64,000 bases of DNA from a phage: sequence record PV730300.1; one strand, written 5' to 3'. Each line of letters opens with the position of its first letter. Position 1 is the stretch's first letter. The position numbers were made by a program, and so were the translations under genes. The notes beneath the pieces are model-generated. The model had not been told where the DNA came from. It ran no database searches and saw only the letters and a program-made list of their open reading frames with translations. Of this stretch, positions 7,621 to 51,462 are shown piece by piece.

Positions 7621-8937
7621 ATGCGTGGCGTTTTAAATATTATAGGTCAAGACCCAAACAATCCAGACAAAATTCTGGTTACATGCTCTATCTGTTCAGA
7701 AGATAAAGAACTTTATCCTCAACCTTTCAGCATGTTCAAAAGTAACTTTGGTAGGCAAACACCTTGTGGTTGCTCAAAATGTCCAAAACTAAGTGAAGAT
7801 CAAGCCTACATTGTAGCAAAGAGAGCTACAGAAGCTTTAGGATACACTTTTTTAGGTTGGAGTAAAGAATACACAGGCTCAAGTTCTACAAAAATCCGTT
7901 GTGTTTGTCCTGAACATGGGGAATGGAACACTGGTATAATTTCAACGATTCGGAAGGGTGTGGGTTGTCCAAAGTGTGTAGATCCTAGGAAAAGAAAAGA
8001 TTTAGTAAAAGCTGAAGATTTCTTGGCAACAGGCTTCTTTGAAGATGGGACTACTTTTACCAAATCTGAAAGAAAAGATAAAAATGGTTGGAGTCCTTAT
8101 TGGTTTGTTACCTGCCCTACATGTTCAAATGATAAGTTTGTAAAAGCTGGACTTTGCTCTGGTATCTTTGAAGGCATGAAGTCTAATCTTTTGAAGGGTG
8201 CTAAACCTTGTCGTTGTTCTTCAAGGTATGTATACACTGAAGAGCAATATATTTTACGAATTAACACTGAAACACCTTATAGCTTTATTCGTTGGATTGG
8301 GAAGTTTAAAGGTAATCGCTCAAAAGTTGTAGTTTTTTGCGAAGAACATGGCGGTGAGATAGAGATGACTGTTTTTGGTTTGTTATCGGGAAACCGTTGT
8401 ATTACTTGTCACGGACACAAACCGAAACCAGAGACTGACATGAAAGAACAATTGAAAAAGGTTTGTGAGGAACGTGGATACACTTTTGTAAAGCTTATTG
8501 ATTACAAATCAAATAAGAGTTCTTTTCAATACTCTTGCAAAACCCACGGCATCCAACAAATATCAATCACAAACTTTATACACGGTGAACAAGGTTGTCC
8601 AGAATGTAGAGGTAAAAATCAGACCTATGCTTATATTCACCTGGTGGAAGATGAGGGTCTTGGTATTATTGGTCTTAAATTTGGAATAACAAAAAATCCA
8701 AGAATAAGAATAAGGCAACAGAATCGACTTGCTAAATATAAACTACGCAAGTTTAAGTTATATAGATTTGAAACTGTGGCAGCTTGTCGCACCGCAGAGA
8801 AAGAAGTGAAAGACGTTTTACCTTGCGGAGTTTTCTCCCAACAAGACATTCCAGACGGGTGGACAGAGACAACTTATATCTACAACCTGGAAAACATTAT
8901 GAAAATCTTTGAAGATAATGGAGGAATACTTTGTTAG
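7621..8937 (+). CDS. Homing-endonuclease-like protein: five tandem zinc-ribbon modules plus C-terminal T5orf172 (GIY-YIG-like) domain
   Basis: Repeated Cys-pair modules (TCSICS...TPCGCSKCPK; IRCVCPEHG...GVGCPKCV; FVTCPTCS...PCRCS; VVFCEEHG...RCITCHG; YSCKTHG...GCPECRG); C-terminal YAYIHLVEDEGLGIIGLKFGITKNPRIRIRQQN matches the T5orf172 pattern as I recall it; strong SD; lies just upstream of a group I intron core. Confidence 0.6.
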   Translation: MRGVLNIIGQDPNNPDKILVTCSICSEDKELYPQPFSMFKSNFGRQTPCGCSKCPKLSEDQAYIVAKRATEALGYTFLGWSKEYTGSSSTKIRCVCPEHGEWNTGIISTIRKGVGCPKCVDPRKRKDLVKAEDFLATGFFEDGTTFTKSERKDKNGWSPYWFVTCPTCSNDKFVKAGLCSGIFEGMKSNLLKGAKPCRCSSRYVYTEEQYILRINTETPYSFIRWIGKFKGNRSKVVVFCEEHGGEIEMTVFGLLSGNRCITCHGHKPKPETDMKEQLKKVCEERGYTFVKLIDYKSNKSSFQYSCKTHGIQQISITNFIHGEQGCPECRGKNQTYAYIHLVEDEGLGIIGLKFGITKNPRIRIRQQNRLAKYKLRKFKLYRFETVAACRTAEKEVKDVLPCGVFSQQDIPDGWTETTYIYNLENIMKIFEDNGGILC

Positions 8938-36584: not shown

Positions 36585-39182
36585 CTAGTGACAGGACGCC
36601 CAGGAATTACCCACATCATACCCAGCAGTAAGCTGAACATTAAGATTGTAAAATTCTCCAGCCTTAGTAACAGCTAAAGCAGCAAGTTCACCTGCCCGAC
36701 TATAAGCTGTAAACCATCCACCTTTGGGAGATTCATGAATGTTAGCCCAAATTTGCCCTGTCTCTTTTTCCTTATTATGCTTCCATTCTTCGACTTTAGC
36801 AAGGCATTCTTTATCAATTTTCTTTTGTTCTTCAGGATCGTCTACTTTCTTCCAACCTAATGATTCAGGTGAAAACCATTTAAATTCTACAAGGTTACGA
36901 GAAACTTCAAGCTGGGCTTCATCGTGATATGCAATCATTTGTTGCACGAAATCTTTATTCTTCCAGTCATCTTTAAAGAAGTCAACACTTAATCCTTCTT
37001 CTTCGATCATGTCGTCATAAATAACCATTGCACGTTTAGCACAGATAACCCCACCACTTTGGAACAGAGAGTTAAGAATCGCGTGAGCAGAACGAGTAGG
37101 AACCTTACGACCGTCAATACCCAAAACATATTGTTTACCAGTCTTAACCCAGAAATCGTTTAAACGTTCTTTAAGACGCGCCAATGGGAATGCAGCTTCC
37201 CAGAAAGCATCGAACACCAATTGACCTGTAAACTTATCGCTACCAATTGTTTTAGCAACCTTGTCGGCTTGTGCACCATAGGTAATACCATACTTAACAG
37301 ATTTAGCAGGACTACGTTCAAATTTACGTCCAATAGTTTCAGTGATACGTTTTGCCATCATTGTGTGAACATCGTTAGGTTTCTCTAACAACAGAGCGTT
37401 ACAATATTCGTGTGGCTCCGGCTCGTACCGCCAACAGTAGTGTGATTCAATTTTTGCTTCCAAAGAGTCGAAGTCGTAGCCGATCTGGAAGTATTTAGGA
37501 ACCTCCACACCAAACAAGTTACGCATCTCCCATCCAAACAAAGATGTGACACGAGGAATATTAGCTACAGATCTATGCTTCATACGAGAGGTTGCAGCAT
37601 CACATGTAGCGGCTGGGGTAGGAATACGACCATCCGCCCTTACTGCGGCTAAGAAACCTTTATCGTATTCTTGATCTTCCTCATCTTCTTCCCAATCAGC
37701 ACCACCACCTAAAATAGAATTCCTACGATGCTTATACGTTAAGTATTCTACAATCTGTGTAGCATAAGGGAATTTCTCACCCAAAGCTTGCAGGTTAGGA
37801 CAGATTTCTTTTTCCTGACCTTTGGTAAAGCATGGGTTAGTCAATACTTTAAGACCGCGACCTTTACCTTTTGCTATACGCTCTTGAATCTTCCTCTCCA
37901 AGGTTTCCGGTGTGCACTCCAGATGATCACAACGATCCTGACAAAAATTAGAAGATAGAGTTTGCTCAACGTAAGCTCGAATACCTTTCTGAAGTTCTTC
38001 CTCGCTCTTTTTAATCTTGGTGCCAGATTTAAGAGTCAAGTCTTTATCTTTATATTCAGACGGTACCCAACCTAATCCTACAAGCCAGTTTTTAATATGG
38101 GTAGTATCGTTCAATGTTGCAGGTATGTTAGGATCACACAAAGGCTCATCTGCTGCAACTGGCAGTTTCCACTCTTTCCCCAACATCACTAACCACCAAT
38201 CTCCATCCCTCTCTTCCAAATGACCATCATGTTTCTTAGCAAAATTGATCATATGGTTAGTTGGCTCTAAGTTCTTTTTAATTTGCAACTTAGGTGGAAT
38301 AAAAGCCTTAAGATAACCTTTTGTTGCTGGTTTAGGTGGCAAAATAGGCTCAACGAGTAAACGAAGACGCTCCATTTCTGCATCCAAAAAAGCAAGGTTC
38401 TCTTCTGCTTGCTTCATGTTAAAAGCAAACCCACGGTGTTCCTGGCGTGTAATAATGTCTGCTACACGTTGTTCAAGTTCAAATGGACCTTCCCATTTAT
38501 CATAATCGCCCCATTCTTCCATAAGGTAATTATATACGCTCGTATTGGCTTTGTTGTCATAGATACAGTAATAAAGCATATCCGCAGCAAAAGTCTTAAA
38601 TCGATCTTCTTCTGGAATCTCTTTACGGAAATCTATTTTTACATCACCACCTGCCTTTCGAGAAAGTGCTGCCAAACTATGTCCTGATTTGCCCTCAATC
38701 TTTCGATCTGGGTTTAACACTTTACTCAAAATCAAGGAGTCAATAAGTTTTACCTTATTTTTGCCCCACGTGTTATATTTAACACTGTAATCTAAGCCAT
38801 AAAACAGTTTTGTAGCCAACCAGTCGTAGTTGATACCGTTGTGAGCCACAGCCATTTCAACCAGATATTCAGGCTTATCTTTAAAATAACCTTCATGATT
38901 AATAAAGTCTGGGAAATCTTTTAGTTGAAAATGTGTGTAATCTTGCGCCACATATTCTTTAAGAACATATGTGTATTTACCATCTGACTCTTCATAAGGA
39001 CGCCCATCAAAGATGTATTTAGGGCCATCGTGGAAAGCTACTATTTCTCCTGTTTCATGGTTCTCTAAGACAATACAGTGCATTTGAAATGTGTCTTTGA
39101 GACGATAAGGACTAGCTAAATAATCGATAGTGTCATTATTCAACAATCCGTTTGCTTCAATATCCCATGTAAACTTACTCAC
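36585..39182 (-). CDS. DNA polymerase, family A, with 3'-5' exonuclease domain
   Basis: Exo motif DIEANGL; Pol A motifs A (DFDSLEAK), B (RSPAKSVKYGITYGA) and C (YHDE). Confidence 0.85.
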   Translation of the reverse strand: MSKFTWDIEANGLLNNDTIDYLASPYRLKDTFQMHCIVLENHETGEIVAFHDGPKYIFDGRPYEESDGKYTYVLKEYVAQDYTHFQLKDFPDFINHEGYFKDKPEYLVEMAVAHNGINYDWLATKLFYGLDYSVKYNTWGKNKVKLIDSLILSKVLNPDRKIEGKSGHSLAALSRKAGGDVKIDFRKEIPEEDRFKTFAADMLYYCIYDNKANTSVYNYLMEEWGDYDKWEGPFELEQRVADIITRQEHRGFAFNMKQAEENLAFLDAEMERLRLLVEPILPPKPATKGYLKAFIPPKLQIKKNLEPTNHMINFAKKHDGHLEERDGDWWLVMLGKEWKLPVAADEPLCDPNIPATLNDTTHIKNWLVGLGWVPSEYKDKDLTLKSGTKIKKSEEELQKGIRAYVEQTLSSNFCQDRCDHLECTPETLERKIQERIAKGKGRGLKVLTNPCFTKGQEKEICPNLQALGEKFPYATQIVEYLTYKHRRNSILGGGADWEEDEEDQEYDKGFLAAVRADGRIPTPAATCDAATSRMKHRSVANIPRVTSLFGWEMRNLFGVEVPKYFQIGYDFDSLEAKIESHYCWRYEPEPHEYCNALLLEKPNDVHTMMAKRITETIGRKFERSPAKSVKYGITYGAQADKVAKTIGSDKFTGQLVFDAFWEAAFPLARLKERLNDFWVKTGKQYVLGIDGRKVPTRSAHAILNSLFQSGGVICAKRAMVIYDDMIEEEGLSVDFFKDDWKNKDFVQQMIAYHDEAQLEVSRNLVEFKWFSPESLGWKKVDDPEEQKKIDKECLAKVEEWKHNKEKETGQIWANIHESPKGGWFTAYSRAGELAALAVTKAGEFYNLNVQLTAGYDVGNSWASCH

Positions 39183-39976
39183 TATTCCTCCTTTCTAATG
39201 TTCTCCAGAACCCACTGAAGTTCTTTTAAACTTAAACTTCTTACTCCCGCAGTTTTACTAGCTTCAGCTTTAAGTAACGGGTAAGCCTCAATGATACGCG
39301 TTTTAAGATCAGAAGTCAAGGCTTTTAAAAAATAGGTAGATGCTTCAGATAAAGAATCTTCTTCTGATAACACTTTACCTGCACTTGCTCCCGCTCTCCT
39401 AACAGCTATATCGTAGTCTTTACTGTTACCTAATACGAATAATCGATTCTCTCCTAAAACAACGGGAGAACGCTTCTCGTTGCGTTTAATCCATACCTGG
39501 AATACACAAGGAACATCCCAAGGTTCTCCATGAAGAATAAAAGATCCTTTTGGACATTCTTCTTCGTAAAGAAGATGCATATGGGGATTTAGTTTGTGTG
39601 CAAAAAAGATTTTTTGAAATGTGCGAGGCAAGATAAAACAAATACCACCTTCGTTATCCAGCATTTCAGCACAATGGTTAAAGAATTTAATGGCAAGACT
39701 AGCATTTTTTCCAAAAGGAGGATTACCGACAAAAGCAGTTACACTACCAACAGACTCAACAGATTGAGCTAAAAAATCTGCCTCAATACAATCTTCAAAC
39801 TTAGGGTCAATATCAAAAGAAGTTATGTTTTTAAAACAAGAAGAGAAAGCTCCTTCTCCCGCAGATGGTTCTACGTAGTTAGCTTCCTCTCCAAAAATTT
39901 CTTTGATCTTATCACATAAGAACCCCGCATAAGCGGGGTTAGTGTAATATTGATCAAGTGTGTTCAACTTGCTCAA
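39182..39976 (-). CDS. DNA methyltransferase (amino-methyltransferase, NPPF catalytic motif)
   Basis: SAM-binding motif VEPSAGEGAF followed by NPPFG; no adjacent restriction endonuclease gene seen. Confidence 0.65.
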   Translation of the reverse strand: MSKLNTLDQYYTNPAYAGFLCDKIKEIFGEEANYVEPSAGEGAFSSCFKNITSFDIDPKFEDCIEADFLAQSVESVGSVTAFVGNPPFGKNASLAIKFFNHCAEMLDNEGGICFILPRTFQKIFFAHKLNPHMHLLYEEECPKGSFILHGEPWDVPCVFQVWIKRNEKRSPVVLGENRLFVLGNSKDYDIAVRRAGASAGKVLSEEDSLSEASTYFLKALTSDLKTRIIEAYPLLKAEASKTAGVRSLSLKELQWVLENIRKEE

Positions 39977-40509: not shown

Positions 40510-42288
40510 TTAATAGTTGCTATCCGTAGGCAAATTAGCAGGATTGTTGAAATACTGCTCTTTGTCATGCAGAGTTGCAGTTCTAATGTCATAGTAAAAC
40601 TGCCCTGCCGGACCAGTTTCCGAGAACTCACGGTTTTTTAGGATAAAGCAATGAGTCGTATTTCGTTCTACAGGGTCTTCAGCGGCTTTATCTCGTTCCA
40701 AAGCCAAGGTAATACCAGCGCCTTTAGCCAAGAAACTACTACCCATTGCATCGTCCTCTGTTAAGTGTTCATTGCCACCATTAGCCGATTTCTTAACGTG
40801 TGAGATGACGATAATAGTTATAGCATACTCTTTCATGATGCGCTTCAACCATGTTGCTAACTCTTCCTGGGCTTGAACATCCATACCAGAAAGCAAATCA
40901 GAATAAGGGTCGATAACAAGAATTGTTACTCCAAAATAGATGATCATCTCCAAAACTTTTTCTTTGATAGACTCCACATCTGCTCCACGATCATCACACA
41001 CATAAAAACGTGGTGATCCATCTTCTCTTTCGTAAAAATCTAGGATTTTTTCTTTATTCTCTTCCAGGATTTGAAATTTCTCTTCCGGTGTTTTCCTATG
41101 TAGAGGAATATGCAGGAACGAGGACAACAGGTTACGAGAATATTTCTTATAAGTTGCTTCCAATGACAGAATACCAAGAGTATGTTCTGGGTGTGCAACG
41201 ATAATATGTTTGGTGATCTCATTCACCATCAAAGTTTTACCGATACTGGTCTTTGCCAGAATGACTGTAATCTCTTCCTCTACTAAACCACCACCCAGCA
41301 TATTTGCAGCAACACGCATAAAAGGAGGCAAGGTAATCATCTTGGATTCCAAGCATTCTAATGCAGCTTCATACAAGACATTAGAAGCATAAACACCTGC
41401 TGGGGTGTATAGACGAGCACTCCAAAAAGCTTTTACGAAATCCTTTGCACGACCTTCTTCCAGATACTGATTGGCATCCTTAAGATCCATCTGCATACGG
41501 TAGACTTTGTTACGAGGCAACACCTTAACAATATTTTCAAATGCCTCATTACCCGCTTTGTCATTATCCATGCAAACAATAATCTTCTTAAATTTTTCAA
41601 AGAAAGGATATTGTGCCTGAACTTGTTTATACATACTGGTTTCACCAGTTGTGCCACTAACTACTGCTGGAAGTTCATATTTGTTGTCCAAGTTTTCAGA
41701 CAGCATTTGATAAGCTGCCAGAGCATCGTGTTCACCACCTGTAATTACCACAGTATGAGAACGGTCTGCAAAACGAATTTGTCCAAAAAGATCTACATCT
41801 TTACCTACTTGACCAATAGGTTTACTGAAATCTTTAGGATGGATACGACGCTTAAAACCAACCAATTCTTTACCGATGGTAGTTGGATATAAACAACTTT
41901 CTACTACCATCTGATCCCCTTCCTGACGGTATTCATAACGAACACCATAGAAAGATGAAACTTTTTCTTTAATGCCTCGATAACCACGTGGGTTGGTTGA
42001 TGTTTCTTGAACAATTTTACGATGAATCTGTTTATTAAATTCCGAACCCACAATCTCCTCCTCTTCTTCTAAAACTTCACCATTTTCTCGTAACCATTCT
42101 ACGCTAGGAATAGTGTATTCACACGCAAAGCACTTAGCACCTTTATGCTCTCCATTAGAATCTAATCCATAAACCATCAAGTTATTACGAGAGCGATCCT
42201 TGCCATTTTTCATGCAGCGCGGACAACCTGTATGCCCTTCCTTGCTAAGATCAACATCAAATCCATATTTAGTTATAATGTGCGACAC
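40510..42288 (-). CDS. DNA primase-helicase (T7 gp4-like bifunctional)
   Basis: N-terminal zinc-binding CPRCMKNG...KCFACE; C-terminal Walker A AKTSIGKT. Confidence 0.8.
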   Translation of the reverse strand: MSHIITKYGFDVDLSKEGHTGCPRCMKNGKDRSRNNLMVYGLDSNGEHKGAKCFACEYTIPSVEWLRENGEVLEEEEEIVGSEFNKQIHRKIVQETSTNPRGYRGIKEKVSSFYGVRYEYRQEGDQMVVESCLYPTTIGKELVGFKRRIHPKDFSKPIGQVGKDVDLFGQIRFADRSHTVVITGGEHDALAAYQMLSENLDNKYELPAVVSGTTGETSMYKQVQAQYPFFEKFKKIIVCMDNDKAGNEAFENIVKVLPRNKVYRMQMDLKDANQYLEEGRAKDFVKAFWSARLYTPAGVYASNVLYEAALECLESKMITLPPFMRVAANMLGGGLVEEEITVILAKTSIGKTLMVNEITKHIIVAHPEHTLGILSLEATYKKYSRNLLSSFLHIPLHRKTPEEKFQILEENKEKILDFYEREDGSPRFYVCDDRGADVESIKEKVLEMIIYFGVTILVIDPYSDLLSGMDVQAQEELATWLKRIMKEYAITIIVISHVKKSANGGNEHLTEDDAMGSSFLAKGAGITLALERDKAAEDPVERNTTHCFILKNREFSETGPAGQFYYDIRTATLHDKEQYFNNPANLPTDSNY

Positions 42289-42300
42289 TTTGTTCTCCTG

Positions 42301-42579
42301 TTAAAATGGTTCGTTAGTCTCCATCATATATTCTGCTTCTAGTTCTTCCATGTGCTTTCTAAATTGGAAAGCAATTTCTGCTACAGTTACATTTAAATCT
42401 TTTTCAAAAACTTCTGTAGAGCCTTCGTAAAAACGAATACCGTCAATTAAAAGCCCTCCGTGGTAATCCCAATCACTTTCACGAGAAAGCGGGTTAGGCT
42501 CTTCATAATAGTAATCCACCTCCACGACTAAAGCTTTCCCGTTACGAGTGGTGTATTCAAAATCAAAAGTGTTAATCAT
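42301..42579 (-). CDS. Hypothetical protein
   Basis: 92 aa acidic ORF. Confidence 0.4.
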   Translation of the reverse strand: MINTFDFEYTTRNGKALVVEVDYYYEEPNPLSRESDWDYHGGLLIDGIRFYEGSTEVFEKDLNVTVAEIAFQFRKHMEELEAEYMMETNEPF

Positions 42580-43523
42580 TATAGCTCCTCAAATAAAAGT
42601 CTACGACGCTCATTCAACACATCAATGTGATAATGAGTCCTGACATACTTAGCTAATGCTAATCCTTTCTCCATGCAAACATCGGGAGCACTTAATAAGT
42701 ATTCCGTAATATCTTTCCACTCGGAAGGTGTTTCAGCAAAGAATAACAGATCTTTAAACTCTTGTGTATGATAATTCTCACGAGGAGAACAGATCAAAGG
42801 TAAACCCTTAGCACCTGCCTCAAGAATTTTAAGATTGCTTTTTGCATTATTAAACACGTTATCAATCAATGGCGCAAGACTGATTTGATGACCATCGTAA
42901 GATTCCATGTAGTTGGCATATGGTCTTACACCTTCATAAACACAAGTTGGTGCTACATTTTCCCTGATTACAGACCATTCACGACTACTTAAAACTTCAG
43001 AATCCCTACGAAAACCACATATTGTAAGATCTTTACCAAAATCGGGCAAGATAGCCAAATCTTGTTTATGTGTTTCACTTCCAGCCCAGACTAATGGAGT
43101 TTTGGAGTAGCGATCACGGGTCAACACAAATTGACCTTCATCGTAAGGAAGTCCATTAGGGATTATGTGCACATTATCATTGTATTGTGAAAGTTCAACT
43201 TGCAAGGCAGGTGTCGTAGTTGTAACAAGGTCACTGTGCTCTAAAAACCATTTTAAATGTTCACGAATACCTGATTCAAAAATACCTTCTAACATGTGTC
43301 CTTTTGGAATAACTAAAGAGTCATCCAAATCCATAACCATTTTAAAGCCTAGGTTTTTAAGGGCTAAAAAGCCCTCTTTACCTTTTGTTGGCACTCCGTT
43401 AAAAACGAAAACGTTGTGTTTAGGTTGTGAAGAGAACTGCCTTGAGTAAGGCAGCACTACCCTATGGAAATCGCAGACACTATAATTGATTCCGTTACGA
43501 TTGTCAAGAATTATTTGTCCCAT
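42579..43523 (-). CDS. Glycosyltransferase, GT-B fold (paralog 1)
   Basis: 314 aa; KSNLKILEAGAKGLPLICS resembles the GT-B E-x7-E/ILEA motif region; paralogous to adjacent gene. Confidence 0.55.
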   Translation of the reverse strand: MGQIILDNRNGINYSVCDFHRVVLPYSRQFSSQPKHNVFVFNGVPTKGKEGFLALKNLGFKMVMDLDDSLVIPKGHMLEGIFESGIREHLKWFLEHSDLVTTTTPALQVELSQYNDNVHIIPNGLPYDEGQFVLTRDRYSKTPLVWAGSETHKQDLAILPDFGKDLTICGFRRDSEVLSSREWSVIRENVAPTCVYEGVRPYANYMESYDGHQISLAPLIDNVFNNAKSNLKILEAGAKGLPLICSPRENYHTQEFKDLLFFAETPSEWKDITEYLLSAPDVCMEKGLALAKYVRTHYHIDVLNERRRLLFEEL

Positions 43524-43530
43524 ACTTCAC

Positions 43531-44478
43531 CTACAAACTTTCAATAACCTGGCGTCGCAATTCGTTTGCATCTGCCAGATTGTAGTGTGTTCGAACATGT
43601 TCCGCTAAGAACAAGCCACGATCTTCCCGATAGTTTGGATTGCGAAGAAGCTTAACAATTTCGTAATGCCATTCTGCTTTATTCTCTGCGTAAGCAACAG
43701 CACGAGCATCTACAGGGTTAAAATAAGGTAACACCTTAGAACAAACAATCGGAATACCTTTTGCCCCAGCTTCCAGGATTTTGAGATTACTTTTGCAATT
43801 ATTAAAATCATTATCTACCAAAGGAGCTATAGCAATAGCATGACTTTCGTAAACACTCATGTAATTATCTAAATCTTTTACAGCAGCTTTATATTTGGCA
43901 TTTGGTAAATTTCTGCGAATCTTAATCCACTCTTGTCCCGTGATGCTCTGCGATGCTTCATATCCCGCAATAGTAAGAAGTTCATCATCGAAAGTATTAG
44001 AGACTAGTCGTAAATCGGGTTCGTGACTAGCACCGCCAGCCCATACAACAGGGGTACCGGATGAACGATCATTTGACAAAGTGAATTGTCCACTATCAAA
44101 AGGAAGTGCATTTCGGATCACAACAACATTCCTATTTAAGTGACGGATCTTATATGCCAAGTATTCCGTAGTCACAATAACCACATCAGCAAGTTTAACC
44201 ATAGCCACAATAGCATGAGTGTTTGACTCGTATAGACTTGCTAAATAATGTTCTGGATTAAGTTGGTAGAAATCATCTAAATCTACAACAATCTTAACAC
44301 CTTGACGTTTCAAAGATAAAACGTATTCTGCACCTTTAGAGTGGATACGGTTAAACACAACAACATCTTTCTTAGGTTGAAGATTATGGTTGTTAAATGG
44401 CATAACAATACGATGATAGTCACAACCGCTGTGAGGTTTTGCATCAATTTTTAGTTTAGACCATTTTTTATTTGACAT
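43531..44478 (-). CDS. Glycosyltransferase, GT-B fold (paralog 2)
   Basis: 315 aa; shares blocks with paralog 1 (CDYHRIVMPF / CDFHRVVLPY; NNCKSNLKILEAGAKGIPIVCS). Confidence 0.55.
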   Translation of the reverse strand: MSNKKWSKLKIDAKPHSGCDYHRIVMPFNNHNLQPKKDVVVFNRIHSKGAEYVLSLKRQGVKIVVDLDDFYQLNPEHYLASLYESNTHAIVAMVKLADVVIVTTEYLAYKIRHLNRNVVVIRNALPFDSGQFTLSNDRSSGTPVVWAGGASHEPDLRLVSNTFDDELLTIAGYEASQSITGQEWIKIRRNLPNAKYKAAVKDLDNYMSVYESHAIAIAPLVDNDFNNCKSNLKILEAGAKGIPIVCSKVLPYFNPVDARAVAYAENKAEWHYEIVKLLRNPNYREDRGLFLAEHVRTHYNLADANELRRQVIESL

Positions 44479-45151
44479 GTGCTAGTGCCTCCTCATAGGA
44501 AATTCGGATTTTCCCATTTTTAATATCCTCTAAAGATGCTTTATATTCTTCCCAGTTAATCCCGATAGCAGCTTCTTTCTCTTCTTTTGTCAGATTAGCA
44601 AAAGGCATAGGATTGTTTCCAAAAACATCGTCTGGGTGGATATAAGCCATGATACGAAGTGGACAAGGTGTTGCCTGAATACCATGATTCAAACCAGCAG
44701 CTTTCAAACGGTGTCCCCATTCGGCATCTTCAAAACCATAACCGTGAGTGTAAGGGCGGAAATAACCCATCTTCTCAACAACGGCACGAGAATACATTGC
44801 AAATTGACACATTGCAAGTTCCCAGAGAATAACTTCTCCTTTGCTTCCAACAACTTTATCTTTGAAGTACTCCGGCATACCAAAGAAATCCCATCCTCCA
44901 GAAACAGCCTGATCTACAAAATATGTTTCCCATCCTTCCATGACTGGGTAGCAATCATCGTCAAAAATAAACCAATAATCATAACCTTCTTCATAGAACT
45001 GGTGCATAAGTTCATTCCTGGCATAAGCTACACCTTTACGATCTGGATCGTTGAATACTCGAAAATCTGCACGTGGATCTGTTACAAGGTAGTCTTTAAG
45101 TGGACGGACACCTACAGTGATAACACCCACTCCGATTTTAATATTTTCCAT
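44468..45151 (-). CDS. Glycosyltransferase, GT-A fold (galactosyltransferase-like)
   Basis: FIFDDDCYP (DxD-type) and GYGFEDAEWGHRL resembling the W-G-x-G-x-E-D motif of GT-A galactosyltransferases. Confidence 0.5.
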   Translation of the reverse strand: MENIKIGVGVITVGVRPLKDYLVTDPRADFRVFNDPDRKGVAYARNELMHQFYEEGYDYWFIFDDDCYPVMEGWETYFVDQAVSGGWDFFGMPEYFKDKVVGSKGEVILWELAMCQFAMYSRAVVEKMGYFRPYTHGYGFEDAEWGHRLKAAGLNHGIQATPCPLRIMAYIHPDDVFGNNPMPFANLTKEEKEAAIGINWEEYKASLEDIKNGKIRISYEEALAHVK

Positions 45152-45159
45152 TTTCTCTC

Positions 45160-45723
45160 CTAAATAGTTTTACTGTGATCATGACAGTGTAATAAATGAT
45201 GTATAGACCGTTGAGGATTTGTTTGACCTAATCTGTAAATGTGAAACAGATACATTCCCCGCATCAATCCTAACCTCTTTCCTTTTTCATGTAAAGTGCG
45301 AGAGAAAATTAAGTCAAATTGGATAGATTTTTCTTCGAAAGGAATTTCATTCCACAGTGATTTCCTAAAAAGCAAAAAGAAACCAGCTAAAGGTGTTCCA
45401 AAAGGAACTTCTTCAACGTTTGTTTTATGATATTCCCGTGCAATTTTAGCATATTCTATGTGATTTAGAATGTCTGGGTCATCATTAATTTGGTTAGAGA
45501 AAAGCTGATAACCACTACCCAGCCTATTACAAGTTGCACCTATTACATCAAAAGGTGGGTTTGACATAATAAGCTCTTCAAGCATAGATGGTTGATCAGG
45601 TAGGAGGAACATTGTATCGGTATCTCTTAAACACACCCAACTATCATCTGGAAGAACGGCAATAGCTTCATTAATAGCCTTGCCGATATTTCCTGTCAGA
45701 TAGGGAGTAATATAATAAATCAT
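45160..45723 (-). CDS. Putative glycosyltransferase-like protein (GT-A-like, weak)
   Basis: 187 aa; LRDTDTMFL acidic motif; adjacent to three glycosyltransferase genes. Confidence 0.35.
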   Translation of the reverse strand: MIYYITPYLTGNIGKAINEAIAVLPDDSWVCLRDTDTMFLLPDQPSMLEELIMSNPPFDVIGATCNRLGSGYQLFSNQINDDPDILNHIEYAKIAREYHKTNVEEVPFGTPLAGFFLLFRKSLWNEIPFEEKSIQFDLIFSRTLHEKGKRLGLMRGMYLFHIYRLGQTNPQRSIHHLLHCHDHSKTI

Positions 45724-45739
45724 TCTCCCCTCCGTTATA

Positions 45740-45931
45740 TTAACTGTCAGCTACAATCCCACGTTTAATCATTTCTTGTTGGATTTGGATCACACGATCT
45801 CGTGCTTCCATATATTCTTTAAAAGATTCTTGAAGATGGTCACGAGCTACGTCTCGTAGCTTAATCAGTTTGTCGTTTGTCACTTCTTGAAGAGAGATTT
45901 CGCCAGTTTCATTGGTCCCAAGCGTTTTCAT
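45740..45931 (-). CDS. Hypothetical small protein
   Basis: 63 aa ORF. Confidence 0.3.
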   Translation of the reverse strand: MKTLGTNETGEISLQEVTNDKLIKLRDVARDHLQESFKEYMEARDRVIQIQQEMIKRGIVADS

Positions 45932-46187
45932 TTACAACCTCCTTAATAGCTACTGCACAGTTCTTACAAATACATTGACCTTTGTTCTTAGAAATTTCAA
46001 TGTAAGGTTCATTTTCGTTTTCTCCGCGTCGTGAGTCGTATATTACTGTATTGAAGCAGACAACGCAAATGTTTTTAATAACGACATATTTTTGCACTTT
46101 CTGTTTAGTGCGAAAATTGACTTCAATGACTTCTCCCATCAGTGAATCTCCCCTAAAATGTTGTTTTGAGACATTACTGCGGAGCAT
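45909..46187 (-). CDS. Small zinc-binding protein
   Basis: Cys pairs CVVCF...CICKNC; start uncertain. Confidence 0.35.
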   Translation of the reverse strand: MLRSNVSKQHFRGDSLMGEVIEVNFRTKQKVQKYVVIKNICVVCFNTVIYDSRRGENENEPYIEISKNKGQCICKNCAVAIKEVVNENAWDQ

Positions 46188-46424: not shown

Positions 46425-46946
46425 TTAACTCCCCTTTGGTAGATAGAAACCATGCACTTTATCTCGATAAACAAGACGCATATCACGTTCCCAGTGTGTC
46501 CTTATATTCCGTTTCTTGAAGTATAGAGCACCTTTAGTAACATCTAAAACAGACCGCAATTCAGGAAAATGTTTCTCTAAATAAAGTAAACGCTCCGCTA
46601 TTGCTTTTGCTTCCTGCCACTTATCTTTCTCTGTTACGTTAAAAGTTTTCGCATATGAGAATTGTCCTTTCTGGAACAAGACTCCTCTGACTGTGTTAGG
46701 GAAGTAGGTATCATTTCTTCTGTTGATTACCACATTCCCAACGGCATTCATTCCTTTTTTACCCAGACCGCGACCTTCTGCGTAAATTGCACAAGCTAAT
46801 AGAATTTTATCATTATATTGCTTTGTACATTTGTGAACTACTTTAGCGGTTTTTACGTTTGCAGCTTCGGCTTTCGCCACAACAGGTGTAAATGTAAAAG
46901 CAGTTAAGGATAGTAACGCAACTGTTACAAAGTTTTTTATCAGCAA
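46425..46946 (-). CDS. Secreted cell-wall hydrolase (SleB/CwlJ-type), candidate endolysin
   Basis: N-terminal signal-like sequence ending AKA-EA; LLACAIYAEGRG...VGNVVINR resembles the SleB/CwlJ hydrolase signature; TTG start with AAGGAGG SD. Confidence 0.55.
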   Translation of the reverse strand: MLIKNFVTVALLSLTAFTFTPVVAKAEAANVKTAKVVHKCTKQYNDKILLACAIYAEGRGLGKKGMNAVGNVVINRRNDTYFPNTVRGVLFQKGQFSYAKTFNVTEKDKWQEAKAIAERLLYLEKHFPELRSVLDVTKGALYFKKRNIRTHWERDMRLVYRDKVHGFYLPKGS

Positions 46947-47046: not shown

Positions 47047-47649
47047 TTATGGACATTCATACCATTCTTTTTTACCACCGAAGGCCATCACCACATCACA
47101 AATATCCAGACCAGCTTTACCTACACCATATGCTTTCAGCTTCCATTCCCCATCTTCACGAACCAAGGAAGCCACGTGGCAGATTGTGTTGCCAGCTACT
47201 TCAGGAGCCAGGAAGTCAAAATCCAGAATTTCCACATTGCGCTCGGAGTCGAAGATTTTAAGCATACCTTCAGAAGCATGACCAAAACGTTTCAGACCTG
47301 TATCATCATCAATGGTCAGGACAAAGGCAATCTCTTGTGCATCAGGAGAGATTTTAGCCAGAGTAATATCAATCTGCTCCATGCTGCCAGTTCCATCACG
47401 AACATCGTCACCAGCGAAGGTAGAACGTTCAGGATCAAACTTGTTAGCATAGCAAACCAGGTGACGTGCAGACAGCATTTCAGGATTGCCAGCGGCATTG
47501 TGACGACAAACCAGTGCACTTACATCCAGATCCAGTTTAGAATCAGATTTCCAAGAGAATTCCAGGCGCAGTTCTTTCAGAGCCGGAGCAACTTTCTTCA
47601 GGGAAATTTTTTCGCTAGAGCCTTTTTTCAGGGAAATTTTATCAGTCAT
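47047..47649 (-). CDS. TerD-family protein (tellurite resistance / stress response domain)
   Basis: ISLKKGSSEKISLKK N-terminus, AGDDVRDGTGSMEQ, EIAFVLTIDDDT and REDGEWKLKAYGVGKAGL align block by block with the Klebsiella TerD sequence as I recall it. Confidence 0.8.
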   Translation of the reverse strand: MTDKISLKKGSSEKISLKKVAPALKELRLEFSWKSDSKLDLDVSALVCRHNAAGNPEMLSARHLVCYANKFDPERSTFAGDDVRDGTGSMEQIDITLAKISPDAQEIAFVLTIDDDTGLKRFGHASEGMLKIFDSERNVEILDFDFLAPEVAGNTICHVASLVREDGEWKLKAYGVGKAGLDICDVVMAFGGKKEWYECP

Positions 47650-47934: not shown

Positions 47935-48163
47935 TTCTTCCTCCTAATGTTATCTCCGGTTTGTATATACGAAGAATTATAGCATTTTCATTTTCTTTGT
48001 CAACCCATTCTTCATAATCGGGCCATACATGAATCTCTACTCTACTTACAATATCTTCCATTCGCACAGTCCCAATGAAATACTCTTTGAGACTGCGTAT
48101 AATGAAAGCTTCTCTCTCGCGCCAATAATTTTCTATGACTTGAGAGGCAAGCTCGTCGATCAT
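47915..48163 (-). CDS. Hypothetical protein
   Basis: 82 aa ORF overlapping stop/start with neighbours. Confidence 0.35.
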   Translation of the reverse strand: MIDELASQVIENYWREREAFIIRSLKEYFIGTVRMEDIVSRVEIHVWPDYEEWVDKENENAIILRIYKPEITLGGRSVKLRN

Positions 48164-48954
48164 TTTTTAGCACCTACTTTAACAACCCACTCTCCGAACT
48201 CTTCAGATAAGAGTTTGTCATAAAGCTCTGAATCTGTCAAGTCTAAATCTTTAATGCCAATAAAACCAACATTATCATAAGCATTTGCCAGTTCTTTCAG
48301 GAAGCCAAACTTCTCATTACCAACGCCAACCATGAACCAATAGATAGGCTTATTCTTATTTTCTTCAATAAGACGACGAACAGCACTAGGATCACCATTC
48401 TCACCATCCGTCTGGAAGAATACAACACCAGGGGTAACGTCAGCACCTGGTTCAGATACAGCTACAACTTTTTCACGCTCTACAGACACTGTTTCAGTTT
48501 TACCAAGCAGACGATTAAAGAAGCCTTTCTTTGGAGCCTCCTCTTGTACCACTTGTTTAGTGGTAATATATTTAGTAACAGTGCCAAAATACTCATCGTA
48601 GATATCCGCCATTACAGGGGCGTAATTTGTTCCACCTCCGATACGAACATTACGCATACATTTACCAACATAGTCATCGTAAACATCTGCTGTTGCTGGA
48701 GTAAGCTCTTGGGAACTCGTATTGAAGGCCCACATATCAATTTGTTGATTATCGTCGAACAGCATACCAAAAGGAAGCAGTTTACCTACAAAATCACTCA
48801 CTACCCCACTAGAATATAGACCATGCATACTACCAGAAATATCTAGAGCACATGCTACACGAAGAACAATCTTACCTTCATTCAGGTTCTTATTCTTTTT
48901 CAGAGAGAAAGCAAGGTTTTCTTGACGTTTTTTCAGGCTGATTTTCTCGGACAT
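48160..48954 (-). CDS. von Willebrand factor A domain protein (TerF/TerY-like)
   Basis: MIDAS motif DISGSM plus GGGTNY; N-terminus KISLKK...FSLKK echoes the TerD N-terminal strand. Confidence 0.65.
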   Translation of the reverse strand: MSEKISLKKRQENLAFSLKKNKNLNEGKIVLRVACALDISGSMHGLYSSGVVSDFVGKLLPFGMLFDDNQQIDMWAFNTSSQELTPATADVYDDYVGKCMRNVRIGGGTNYAPVMADIYDEYFGTVTKYITTKQVVQEEAPKKGFFNRLLGKTETVSVEREKVVAVSEPGADVTPGVVFFQTDGENGDPSAVRRLIEENKNKPIYWFMVGVGNEKFGFLKELANAYDNVGFIGIKDLDLTDSELYDKLLSEEFGEWVVKVGAKK

Positions 48955-50158: not shown

Positions 50159-50353
50159 TTACTCCTCCTCATTGAAGTCAATATCTGCAAGGAGTTGGAA
50201 TTTACGGAAGTTACGACAACCTTCATAAATATAACAATCACGACAAACTGCTAGAACACTTGGGGGATATATGCCTCCCATCGGTGCGAATCGTTTTTCG
50301 TCATCATAACGGACACCAATGTCTTCATCAATTATATAGATACGGATTCTCAT
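50159..50353 (-). CDS. Hypothetical small Cys-containing protein
   Basis: 64 aa ORF (CRDCYIYEGC). Confidence 0.3.
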   Translation of the reverse strand: MRIRIYIIDEDIGVRYDDEKRFAPMGGIYPPSVLAVCRDCYIYEGCRNFRKFQLLADIDFNEEE

Positions 50354-51462
50354 TTACCAAGCCCTCGTTTCACAGCAGCTACCATCCCGTCTTCCAGAGA
50401 TTGAACTTCATTAATATAATCAACACGAGCAGCACGGGCTTCCGTATTGATGCGGTTAGTTTCTTCCAACATCTTAACCAAGTTTTCCTGATCGTGACGC
50501 AGAGTTTCAATATCCAACACTTGACGGTTAGCCAGTGCTGCTGCTTCGATTTGATTCTGTGTGGCAAGATCGCTACCCAGTTTAATTGCCAGGTTAAATT
50601 CATCAAGAACGTTATTCTGCGTCTCTGCTGCTTTCATTTGACGTAAGCTTTCGATATACATTGAGAAGTTAGCAGAGTAAGCAGGAATAACATTATTTAC
50701 TATGTTACGCGCAGATCGCATTAAGCTTGCAGAAACTTTTTGCATACCTTGTACACGCGGTCCCATTTGGACACACAGTAGGCGCAATGCTTTTAAATCT
50801 GCAATACGAATCTCCAGAAGATCCAAAGTATCTCGGATCACTTGTCGCTGTTCTACTGCATCTTCTGGAAGAGCAGCCAAAACTTGTTCTTCTTTTTCAT
50901 AGGTTGCTGTTAGAAGCTGCATATCTCGGTTCAAACTTGCAGCATATTGTCCAATAGCTTGATGTAGCTTTTCAAGATATACCAAGGAATCTTCTTCTTT
51001 GCGAATATCCATTTGAAGGTTCTTTACCAACTCTTCAATACGGTTATTAACATTATCAAACTCCCCGAACAGGTCTTCTTTCATACCCATAACTTTTTTA
51101 ATGAGTTTAGTAATACCTTTGCTTTGTTTAATAGAGTTTGGATCAAGTTGTTTTGCCTGTTTAATCAAAGCTGTGAGTCGTTCACTCATCTGATCGCCTT
51201 GATTACTACGTTGATGTTTTAATACCTCGGCATTCAAGGAACGCAAGGTTGTTCCTGCCTCTGCCCCAATCTCTTCGATCTCTTGTCGGGTCATAGAAGG
51301 CAAAACTGGAACTTCTTGCGGTGCTGCTGGTGCGTAAACAGGACTGGCATCTAACACGCTTGGAGCGAATACAGATTTACTTGCATCTGTTGTTGCAGCG
51401 AATACACTCATTTCAGACTTCTTCTGACCACCAGTAGCTGCTTTTAAAAATGGACTTGTCAT
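50350..51462 (-). CDS. TelA-like toxic-anion-resistance family protein
   Basis: 370 aa, predominantly helical with long heptad-like segments; size and composition fit the TelA/KlaA/YceH family; clustered with TerD, vWA and TerC genes. Confidence 0.45.
   Translation of the reverse strand: MTSPFLKAATGGQKKSEMSVFAATTDASKSVFAPSVLDASPVYAPAAPQEVPVLPSMTRQEIEEIGAEAGTTLRSLNAEVLKHQRSNQGDQMSERLTALIKQAKQLDPNSIKQSKGITKLIKKVMGMKEDLFGEFDNVNNRIEELVKNLQMDIRKEEDSLVYLEKLHQAIGQYAASLNRDMQLLTATYEKEEQVLAALPEDAVEQRQVIRDTLDLLEIRIADLKALRLLCVQMGPRVQGMQKVSASLMRSARNIVNNVIPAYSANFSMYIESLRQMKAAETQNNVLDEFNLAIKLGSDLATQNQIEAAALANRQVLDIETLRHDQENLVKMLEETNRINTEARAARVDYINEVQSLEDGMVAAVKRGLGK

Follow-up and report, generated by a model that had tools for sequence, protein, structure and literature searches.

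Four glycosyltransferase genes of a Phapecoctavirus as an expanded copy of a portable phage cassette, with virion proteins as a candidate acceptor

What do four consecutive glycosyltransferase genes beside the replication genes of a phage glycosylate? The question arises in a stretch of 64,000 nucleotides (the window) from a Phapecoctavirus that is ~98% identical to phAPEC8, in whose RefSeq annotation all four genes are already named glycosyltransferases. An earlier note on this DNA had placed four glycosyltransferase-like genes at 42579-45723, between the primase-helicase and the lysis/Ter region; we recovered all four ORFs there on the minus strand, and our calls for the flanking genes agree:

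36585-39182, family A DNA polymerase, flanking the cluster
40510-42288, Toprim/DnaB primase-helicase, flanking the cluster
42301-42579, minus strand, 92-aa ORF (pI 4.2) between the GT-B1 and primase-helicase genes, matching phrog_4240 (6e-33)
42579-43523, minus strand, GT-B1, 314 aa, probable GT-B-fold glycosyltransferase by paralogy, PF13524 and phrog_7162
43531-44478, minus strand, GT-B2, 315 aa, probable GT-B-fold glycosyltransferase by phrog_7162 and weak PF13692/PF13524 matches
44468-45151, minus strand, GT-A, 227 aa, with invariant DDD and ED, a phrog_2456 match and a GT-A fold model
45160-45723, minus strand, GT4, 187 aa, minimal GT-A fold by its DxD motif (D34/D36), phrog_14179 and model
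46425-46946, cell-wall hydrolase, flanking the cluster
47047-47649, TerD, flanking the cluster
48160-48954, vWA-TerF-like protein, flanking the cluster
50350-51462, TelA, flanking the cluster

The four genes are co-directional and tightly packed, those for GT-A and the 315-aa protein overlapping by 11 nt, and no minus-strand terminator-like sites were seen within the cluster. No transmembrane segments were found in the four proteins (maximal 19-residue Kyte-Doolittle mean at most 1.65), so that all would be soluble and cytoplasmic, and three of them are acidic (pI 5.0-6.0). PHROG places the genes in the category "moron, auxiliary metabolic gene and host takeover". The cluster belongs to the conserved core of phages that are strictly lytic, and an orthologous, syntenic cluster is present in phi92-like phages of the sister genus (EmilieFrey/Bas61 and Paula). 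The acidic 92-aa ORF may or may not belong to the same system. It is kept alongside the four-gene version down to 33-35% identity (L021-L028 of our loci) and no homologs were detected in small-phage cassettes; L029 and L052 have an ORF of similar size at this position, with no similarity detected by search.

The two GT-B proteins are paralogs, as the earlier note had proposed, with 41% identity over 303 aa (E=1e-77), and its ILEAGAKG-type motif is found in both as KILEAGAKG(L/I)P. Both match phrog_7162 "glycosyltransferase" at E ~1e-145 (1e-148 for the 315-aa protein). Against the two Pfam families for the C-terminal part of GT-B enzymes, Glyco_trans_1_2 (PF13524) and Glyco_trans_1_4 (PF13692), the 314-aa protein scores just above the cut-off for PF13524 (25.2 bits, cut-off 25) and the 315-aa protein stays under both PF13524 (20.4, cut-off 25) and PF13692 (22.8, cut-off 27); many GT-B homologs carry one of these two families in precomputed Pfam annotation. 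At least 209 clusters of GT-B2 homologs were detected, prophage and adhesin loci among them. In every locus with a single GT-B, this protein is closer to the 315-aa GT-B2 than to the 314-aa GT-B1, and a second copy occurs only in large Stephanstirmvirinae-like phages (L001, L011, L017-L028 and L044). On this evidence GT-B2 is the ancestral core partner of GT-A, and GT-B1 is a lineage-specific duplicate. That the paralogs are distinct or sequential transferases, an idea from the earlier note, is reasonable.

The DDD and FEDAEW motifs previously ascribed to the GT-A enzyme are present as FIFDDDCYP and YGFEDAEW, and D64-D66, E141 and D142 are invariant in 16 homologs. The protein matches phrog_2456 (9e-79), and its Pfam matches to TAGT, GT2 and GT7C are weak and all under cut-off. 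Its model (pLDDT 89.6) has a GT-A fold, with GT-A enzymes as all top matches in PDB and BFVD; on this predicted structure the 227-aa protein is a GT-A fold (GT2-like) glycosyltransferase. The best PDB match is a viral glycosyltransferase, STIV A197 (E=4e-6), and glycosyltransferases of megavirus and other giant viruses are among the best BFVD matches, with TM-scores of only 0.4-0.7, 11-18% sequence identity and unrelated virus lineages. The capsid protein of STIV is glycosylated; we know of no biochemical demonstration of A197 function. Outside the Stephanstirmvirinae group, relatives of GT-A in cultured phages are only glycosyltransferases of Cluster F and Myrna mycobacteriophages, the best being Ramsey gp106 (E=3e-8 over 130 residues). 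Similarity to Che8 gp108 is weak and generic for GT-A (pairwise E=3e-4) and none was detected to Che8 gp109 or gp110, so that GT-A does not fall into one sequence family with the proven Che8-type enzymes.

The fourth ORF, regarded earlier as a weaker GT-A-like candidate, proves to be a real minimal GT-A-fold enzyme, on which PHROG, DxD motif and model agree. No Pfam match was found for the 187-aa protein, which matches phrog_14179 (2e-112) and has a DxD motif (D34 and D36) with conservation of at least 90%. The top PDB matches of its AlphaFold2 model (pLDDT 91.4) are all GT-A glycosyltransferases (LH3, COLGALT1, ppGalNAc-T2 and RmlT). GT4 orthologs adjoin GT-A/GT-B in L005, L029, L033, L035/L046, L050, L051 and L052, and GT4 is a frequent third member of the set.

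The pairing of GT-A with GT-B recurs in more than 25 loci, and the four genes are best explained as a lineage-expanded copy of a portable, mobile phage glycosylation cassette. Its core is one GT-A and one GT-B, with the 187-aa enzyme as an optional third; in some phages the set also includes a sugar-nucleotide 4,6-dehydratase or epimerase, and in the Stephanstirmvirinae version the GT-B is duplicated and an RmlABCD operon lies separately. Its hosts differ greatly in their envelopes (Pseudomonas, Enterobacter, Serratia, Dongiaceae and Sphingobacteriaceae). Outside Stephanstirmvirinae, the cassette is nearly always in or beside head/packaging genes. In Pseudomonas, Enterobacter and Serratia prophages and several viral contigs it immediately precedes the HNH, TerS, TerL and portal genes. 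In two prophages whose capsid modules are unrelated (L050 and L051), its place is precisely between the genes for the major head protein and the head-tail adaptor; a 16 nt gap (L050) or an 8-nt overlap (L051) at the adaptor gene is too little there for a promoter or terminator of its own. In Cellulophaga phage phi12:1, a GT4 relative lies inside the head module beside a SAM methyltransferase, and a thymidylate-synthase or dioxygenase gene is absent from the complete 39-kb genome. The placement of glycosyltransferase genes in or adjoining the virion and packaging operon thus holds for relatives of the cassette and not for the window, where the cluster adjoins the primase-helicase gene, as in L029 and L052.

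The cassette also has relatives beside adhesins. In Trinickia and Burkholderia dolosa (Burkholderiaceae), an adhesin gene of the invasin/intimin type is followed by that of a GT-B with 41-45% identity to GT-B2, an order of adhesin and glycosyltransferase like that of Aah/AIDA-I and TibC/TibA. Aah and TibC are heptosyltransferases of another family; unlike in these systems, the adhesin is an inverse autotransporter, and its glycosylation is putative.

Sugar supply is encoded by the phages themselves. The products of phAPEC8 gp166-169 match the RmlB, RmlA, RmlC and RmlD Pfam families (E 1e-66 to 1e-80); these genes lie outside the window. RmlC is found at 60% identity or more in ~130 Stephanstirmvirinae records, with a distribution that mirrors that of the cluster. 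The dTDP-L-rhamnose pathway (RmlA-D) is therefore wholly phage-encoded and co-occurs with the glycosyltransferases, at least one of which would use dTDP-rhamnose.

Since many other phages have the cassette among their capsid and packaging genes, the sugars are more likely placed on proteins of the virus particle than on DNA. Our leading, still tentative reading, which falls just short of probable, is that the cassette is expressed late and glycosylates virion proteins, with sugar coming from the phage dTDP-rhamnose pathway in this subfamily. It is a real possibility, though short of probable, that such portable 2-4 gene cassettes glycosylate the virions of phages of Gram-negative bacteria, Phapecoctavirus and Justusliebigvirus, with their own dTDP-rhamnose, included. 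We infer that a short glycan of up to ~4 sugars, probably containing rhamnose, would be built during infection on one or more virion proteins, with the capsid or another head protein as the leading candidate acceptor. One of the two core enzymes would place the first sugar on the protein, for the remaining enzymes to extend or branch. The particles that leave the cell would be coated with glycan, which might affect how well antibodies or proteases reach them, how stable they are or how often they adsorb non-productively.

This reading is supported by the co-occurrence of RmlC, by the match of GT-A to a viral glycosyltransferase (STIV A197) and by the adhesin loci of Trinickia and B. dolosa, which resemble those of dedicated adhesin glycosyltransferases. 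Further support comes from the slot beside the terminase genes, as in Che8, and from the weak kinship of GT-A to mycobacteriophage enzymes. Glycosylation of mycobacteriophage virions (Che8 gp108-110, Corndog gp38 and Myrna) was reportedly described by Freeman et al. in 2023. Two papers cite Che8 gp108-110 as proven virion-glycosylating enzymes (PMC12363180, PMC11256854). Their genes occupy the end of the genome, ahead of HNH and terminase, a slot shared by the cassette in many temperate phages, and both systems are sets of two to four soluble phage glycosyltransferases with no dedicated membrane machinery, in which the GT-A fold and weak sequence similarity (Ramsey gp106, Che8 gp108) recur. 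Unlike the mycobacteriophage systems, the cassette has Gram-negative hosts and a core pair of GT-A with a PF13524-type GT-B, and Stephanstirmvirinae add their own dTDP-rhamnose pathway. The glycan and acceptor here are also putative, and no Ser/Thr-rich C-terminal tails like those of Che8 were found in the capsid and tube proteins of the window, which counts against virion proteins as acceptors.

Other observations weaken the case as well. The cluster lies beside the primase-helicase gene in the window phage, L029 and L052, and protein-, teichoic-acid- and glycan-acting GT-A enzymes match about equally well in the fold searches. A cassette that moves among phages with unrelated capsid proteins would have to recognise a very simple motif in its acceptor, or else act on some other, universal acceptor. 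In temperate phages, morons and genes for DNA modification are likewise often found beside terminase genes. We found no literature report of glycans on capsid or tail proteins of Stephanstirmvirinae by staining or mass spectrometry, and ten phages, among them E. coli myoviruses whose genus is not stated, were negative in a glycoprotein stain (PMC12894461).

DNA is the acceptor towards which the earlier note leaned, proposing base glycosylation against restriction while leaving the substrate open; its gene calls, folds, paralogy and motifs stand, and its preference for DNA is disfavoured. DNA glycosyltransferases are said to have been covered by Pyle et al. in 2023 (T4 alpha-/beta-GT and TAGT enzymes) and Lee et al. 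in 2026 (arabinosyl-5hoC systems), and Olsen et al. reportedly speculated on DNA glycosylation in 2020. That the enzymes rhamnosylate or otherwise glycosylate a modified base of phage DNA would fit the position of the cluster in the replication module, transcriptionally just upstream of the primase-helicase and DNA polymerase genes (window phage, L029 and L052). Every phage offers DNA as an acceptor, which would suit the mobility of the cassette, and DNA-modifying genes also often lie near terminase genes. GT-A has an R...DDD...ED pattern and weak local matches to TAGT and to phrog_842 "beta-glucosyl-HMC-alpha-glucosyltransferase" (7.5e-6). The TAGT (PF20691) match, however, reaches 19.3 bits (E=1.2e-3) where 27.5 is the cut-off, and is confined to residues 32-68 around DDD. 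Unlike in T-even and 5mYOX/TET-associated systems, and in base-J-type ones, the accompanying base-modifying enzymes were not found. The earlier note had seen no hydroxymethylase in the window, and tblastn with an approximate E. coli ThyA query likewise gave no match there. In the complete phAPEC8 annotation, no dCMP or dUMP hydroxymethylase of ThyA type and no dioxygenase appear, and the "thymidylate synthase" gp156 is a ThyX/Thy1 protein. ThyA-like matches were absent from the window and ~50 loci, the top 25 Pfam families in 125 neighbouring ORFs include no dioxygenase or hm-/ho-pyrimidine synthase family, and the visible early regions of small temperate carriers are without base-modifying genes. 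Unknown routes do exist, as the Krischvirus phage SAP has glucosylated methyl-dC although its genus lacks known synthases (PMC13390438). Phages with the orthologous cluster, however, are highly sensitive to type I-III restriction: Bas60-62 are "exceptionally susceptible" (PMC8594841), and BREX lowers phiPau by ~7 logs, while the phages hit by BrxU, a nuclease that depends on modification, do not include it (PMC8565348). This literature, on sister-genus phages and not on Phapecoctavirus, argues against T-even-type protective hypermodification. Three of the four enzymes are also acidic, and we regard DNA as a very improbable acceptor, which in turn supports the virion reading.

Remodelling of the host envelope, with rhamnose-containing sugars added to intermediates of LPS core, O-antigen, ECA or capsule at the cytoplasmic membrane face, could block superinfection, keep progeny off debris or, in temperate phages, bring about lysogenic conversion. 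Polysaccharide synthesis typically relies on GT-A and GT-B enzymes accompanied by sugar-nucleotide genes, and PDB matches across the GT-A and GT4 fold searches include TarP, a prophage teichoic-acid glycosyltransferase (repeatedly, for GT-A), the rhamnosyltransferase RmlT and the O-antigen fucosyltransferase WrtF. The phage Rml enzymes would consume dTDP-4-keto-6-deoxyglucose, from which Fuc4NAc, a sugar of ECA, is made. ECA and LPS outer core are the receptors of these phages (PMC8594841), and the BASEL authors annotated the GT-Bs as "disaccharide synthase". Against this acceptor, the phages that keep the cluster in their conserved core are strictly lytic, the cassette of L050 and L051 is merged with the late structural operon too tightly for the promoter and terminator that a conversion moron typically has, and the envelopes of the cassette hosts differ widely. 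TarP, like GT-A a phage-borne GT-A enzyme, works on envelope polymers in lysogens, as does Gtr, which depends on membrane proteins, whereas the cassette is soluble, has a GT-B partner and lies in late operons or lytic phages. Gtr-type seroconversion (membrane GtrA, GtrB and GtrC; undecaprenyl-linked sugars) is contradicted by four proteins without a hydrophobic segment and by the lack of Gtr-like partners, and the envelope seems an unlikely target overall. Rather unlikely, too, is another soluble acceptor for takeover or anti-defence, such as a host protein or a small molecule (signalling nucleotide, cofactor or antibiotic-like compound). The PHROG category, co-transcription with non-structural genes in the window phage and mobility across distant hosts would suit a conserved cytoplasmic target. 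Such a target has no precedent or specific signal, however, and leaves the repeated placement in head-morphogenesis operons unexplained; three or four sequential glycosyltransferases with a dedicated high-flux sugar-nucleotide pathway better fit an oligosaccharide on an abundant acceptor than the inactivation of a scarce molecule.

Glycosylation of virion proteins, if true, would be the first virion glycan coat outside actinobacteriophages and would replace the recurrent assumption in the literature of a rhamnose DNA modification in these phages. Phapecoctavirus and Justusliebigvirus coliphages are widely used in therapy cocktails, and glycosylation of their virions would matter for phage therapy.

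Four glycosyltransferase (GT) genes are present in the window at the position given in the earlier note, all on the minus strand, with the flanking genes that the note had described.

Glycosyltransferase genes of the cluster
42579-43523, minus strand: GT-B1, 314 aa, phrog_7162, weak PF13524/PF13692
43531-44478, minus strand: GT-B2, 315 aa, phrog_7162, weak PF13524/PF13692
44468-45151, minus strand: GT-A, 227 aa, invariant DDD and ED, GT-A fold model
45160-45723, minus strand: GT4, 187 aa, D-x-D motif, GT-A-type PDB matches

Across 42301-46187 the window shares 95-99% identity with 65 phage records, with phAPEC8, ESCO5, tuntematon and anhysbys among the 30 matches listed. Judged by this identity to phAPEC8-type records, the window is assigned to Phapecoctavirus (subfamily Stephanstirmvirinae, genome about 150 kb). 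The phAPEC8 counterparts in RefSeq are gp074-gp071, each named "glycosyltransferase", and the four genes are thus already annotated knowledge. Records labelled as Campylobacter phages (B15, A110a, A150), Acinetobacter phage vB_AbaM_ABPW7, Pseudomonas phage PsgM04F and "Dompiswa phage" carry cluster regions or proteins with about 65-100% identity to their counterparts in Stephanstirmvirinae phages of E. coli; these host labels are probably wrong or derived from contaminating coliphages.

The 314- and 315-aa proteins are paralogous, as proposed (41% identity, E=1e-77), and weakly match PF13524 and PF13692, which are GT-B C-terminal families. The DDD and ED motifs noted in the 227-aa protein form a signature that is invariant in 16 homologs, and the model of this protein has a GT-A fold (pLDDT 89.6). 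The 187-aa protein, described before as a weaker GT-A-like ORF, has no match in Pfam, but its D-x-D conservation, confident model (pLDDT 91.4) and best PDB matches, all of them GT-A glycosyltransferases, identify it as an enzyme of the GT-A fold. PDB sequence and profile searches with all three GT families returned nothing significant, nor did an NCBIfam search return a match. Three of the four proteins are acidic and hydrophobic segments are absent from all four.

Since the cluster region is uninterrupted by any terminator-like site on the minus strand, its genes are probably transcribed together with the upstream cell-wall hydrolase and the downstream primase-helicase. A near-consensus sigma-70-like promoter match (43479-43507, minus strand; TTGACA, 17 nt, TATAGT; 11/12) falls within the 314-aa gene, close to its 5' end. 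Immediately upstream of the lysis/GT region, in the direction of transcription, this strictly lytic coliphage encodes a tellurite-resistance-type set.

Tellurite-resistance-type genes
47047-47649, minus strand: TerD
48160-48954, minus strand: vWA-TerF-like
50350-51462, minus strand: TelA

Between the DNA polymerase and the primase-helicase, a 264-aa ORF (39182-39976, minus strand) contains NPPFG, a motif characteristic of N6-adenine DNA methyltransferases; its counterpart is annotated as such in phAPEC8, and it has no Pfam match at E<=1e-3. In the structural operon, the tail assembly chaperone gene is separated from the tape-measure gene by an inserted 438-aa HNH/homing-type endonuclease (7621-8937, plus strand; phrog_681 and phrog_559). 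The GC skew changes sign at about 33500, at the switch from the plus-strand structural to the minus-strand replication/metabolism module.

Homologs of the GT-B enzymes are numerous, also in bacterial genomes, where they belong mostly to prophages. Using a local tblastn map of about 50 loci, we identified a constant core of one GT-A followed by one GT-B, the latter always nearer to the 315-aa than to the 314-aa copy of the window. The 187-aa GT is often adjacent to this core, on either side, and in some phages (L005/L006, L029 and L052) an RmlB-like dehydratase/epimerase is inserted. Only large Stephanstirmvirinae-like phages have the second GT-B and a 92-aa ORF; the cluster of the window is thus an enlarged form of a mobile cassette.

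The cassette lies within the late operon in prophages of Pseudomonas, Enterobacter and Serratia and in several viral contigs, following the lysis genes and immediately preceding HNH, TerS, TerL and portal; Pfam matches from a bulk scan of the neighbourhood (125 ORFs) agree with this placement. The genes of a Pseudomonas alliivorans prophage (L050) run scaffold, major head protein, GT4, GT-A, GT-B and head-tail adaptor, and those of another locus (L051) run major head protein, GT-A, GT-B, GT4 and head-tail adaptor. The capsid families of these two loci are unrelated, and the cassette is separated from the adaptor gene by 16 nt in the first and overlaps it in the second. Cellulophaga phage phi12:1 encodes a GT4-like domain that is flanked by portal/MuF and protease/capsid and adjacent to a SAM methyltransferase; neither a thymidylate-synthase nor a dioxygenase gene is present in the complete genome of this phage. 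Directly upstream of this GT, within the head module, is gp39 (gp39-gp40, L049:18868-20540), annotated as "DNA methylase" from PF13578, which could instead be a sugar or protein methyltransferase. Counter to the head/packaging pattern, the cassette is next to the primase-helicase in the window and in two other loci (L029 and L052).

The genome-end slot before HNH and terminase is also that of gp108-110 in mycobacteriophage Che8, which are reported to glycosylate its capsid and tail-tube proteins (as cited in PMC12363180 and PMC11256854). Similarity to mycobacteriophage GTs is real but weak and generic, and was not used as evidence of membership. Ser/Thr-rich C-terminal tails like those of Che8 were not found in the capsid, decoration, sheath and tube proteins of the window, where the major capsid protein is encoded at 1271-2272 and the decoration protein at 851-1249.

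The exceptions to a prophage setting are two adhesin loci, in Trinickia and Burkholderia dolosa, where an invasin-type inverse autotransporter and its Ig-rich continuation precede a close GT-B homolog, which shares 41-45% identity with the phage enzyme. Dedicated adhesin glycosyltransferases show the same arrangement.

Adhesin units with a GT-B homolog
L007:4742-11026: Trinickia symbiotica
L045:3025-8440: Burkholderia dolosa

Conserved in both are the inverse autotransporter (IAT_beta, Invasin_D3, Big_1), an Ig-rich protein of about 560 aa (34% identity between the two species) and the GT-B; the unit could represent an adhesin glycosylation system not described before.

The complete dTDP-rhamnose pathway was described in phapecoctaviruses and phi92-like phages by Olsen et al. 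2020, who speculated on rhamnosylated hydroxymethyl bases (PMC7552041), and "rhamnose modification" has been repeated in later papers. We confirmed RmlB, RmlA, RmlC and RmlD in phAPEC8 with Pfam, and RmlC co-tracks with the GT cluster over about 130 genomes. The earlier note likewise leaned towards glycosylation of DNA bases, a reading that the evidence disfavours. Phage DNA glycosylation, as known, requires a hydroxylated base, made either by a ThyA-family synthase (5hmC, 5hmU and, shown recently for RB69 and DLP3, 5hoC; PMC13326640) or by a methyltransferase with a TET-like dioxygenase (Pyle et al.). Tblastn with E. coli ThyA gave no match in the window, in line with the absence of a hydroxymethylase noted before, or in any fetched locus. 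The suggestion to look elsewhere in the genome was followed in phAPEC8, whose annotation outside the equivalent of the window includes neither route. Its "putative thymidylate synthase" gp156 (L002:45712-46710, 332 aa) is of the ThyX/Thy1 family (PF02511, E=5e-8) and not ThyA, which makes hydroxymethylase signature residues read from an alignment to E. coli ThyA meaningless. An NT5C-like 5'-nucleotidase comes after gp156, which is noted as common to rV5 and PVP-SE1; rV5-type phages are not among the GT-A matches summarised. The GT-A scores 19.3 bits against Pfam TAGT, below the cut-off of 27.5, with only the DDD region covered.

Published sensitivities also conflict with rhamnose on DNA. EmilieFrey (Bas61, a phi92-like phage of the BASEL collection), one of the Bas60-62 phages reported as "exceptionally susceptible" to restriction-modification (PMC8594841), has a syntenic cluster of GT4, GT-A, two GT-Bs, a small ORF, primase-helicase and polymerase. 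The full cluster is also carried by Paula (Justusliebigvirus), which we read as the Durham phage phiPau. BREX reduces phiPau by about seven orders of magnitude, whereas BrxU, a modification-dependent nuclease, attacks 13 phages of which phiPau is not one (PMC8565348). Later work showed that every Durham phage sensitive to BrxU belongs to the Straboviridae and has modified cytosines (PMC13390438). These restriction and BREX data come from a sister genus with proteins 65-77% identical to those of the window, and they argue strongly against T4-style protective hypermodification, leaving room for a sparse or unusual DNA mark. DNA glycosylation thus survives only as an unconventional, non-protective mark, which we consider very improbable.

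The GT-A and GT4 models resemble GT-A enzymes that act on proteins, teichoic acid, glycans and collagen to about the same degree (TM 0.4-0.55), and top BFVD matches are unnamed; the fold search was rejected as a guide to the acceptor, since structure comparison did not separate the virion, envelope, DNA and other-acceptor readings. Remodelling of envelope glycans is unlikely: the enzymes are soluble and fused into structural operons, and strictly lytic phages conserve them, both of which suit this reading badly. Another soluble acceptor is also rather unlikely. A negative glycoprotein stain of ten phages could not be tied to the cluster, the genera of JEP6 and JEP7 being unstated. Because of the weight of genomic context, we tentatively favour, at somewhat less than even confidence, a late-acting cytoplasmic system whose product is placed on virion proteins. 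The analysis shows the folds and motifs of the enzymes, the structure of the cassette and its positions, and the donor pathway. We infer the acceptor, sugars and order of action: the cytoplasmic GTs would act late and glycosylate virion proteins, most plausibly of the head, with phage-made dTDP-rhamnose as the sugar donor in Stephanstirmvirinae. Virion-protein glycosylation by the cassette is offered as a testable hypothesis rather than a demonstrated function. Our literature search found no measured DNA composition or virion glycans for Phapecoctavirus or phi92-like phages.

The genes, their GT nature and virion glycosylation in actinobacteriophages are already known. What appears to be new is the recognition of a portable GT-A/GT-B(/GT4) cassette, its repeated insertion in head-morphogenesis operons in phages of Gram-negative bacteria, and the reassignment of Stephanstirmvirinae "rhamnose DNA modification" to a probable protein target; no paper reporting any of the three was found in our literature search. 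The analysis corrects a "rhamnose modification" claim that is becoming established in the literature: for Stephanstirmvirinae DNA it lacks a genomic basis in a hydroxylated base and is at odds with published restriction and BREX sensitivity. Phapecoctaviruses and phi92-like phages have some of the broadest host ranges of all coliphages and are frequent components of therapeutic and biocontrol cocktails. A phage-made rhamnose-containing glycan, if real, would affect antibody neutralisation, clearance, stability and also manufacturing, since a phage that brings its own rml genes makes the propagation host matter less. It would further take virion glycosylation beyond mycobacteriophages into Gram-negative systems, and would define a compact cassette for transfer between phages to engineer a glycan shield. 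Whatever its acceptor, the system is a core-conserved, high-investment one of eight genes, including rmlA-D, in more than 130 sequenced phages.
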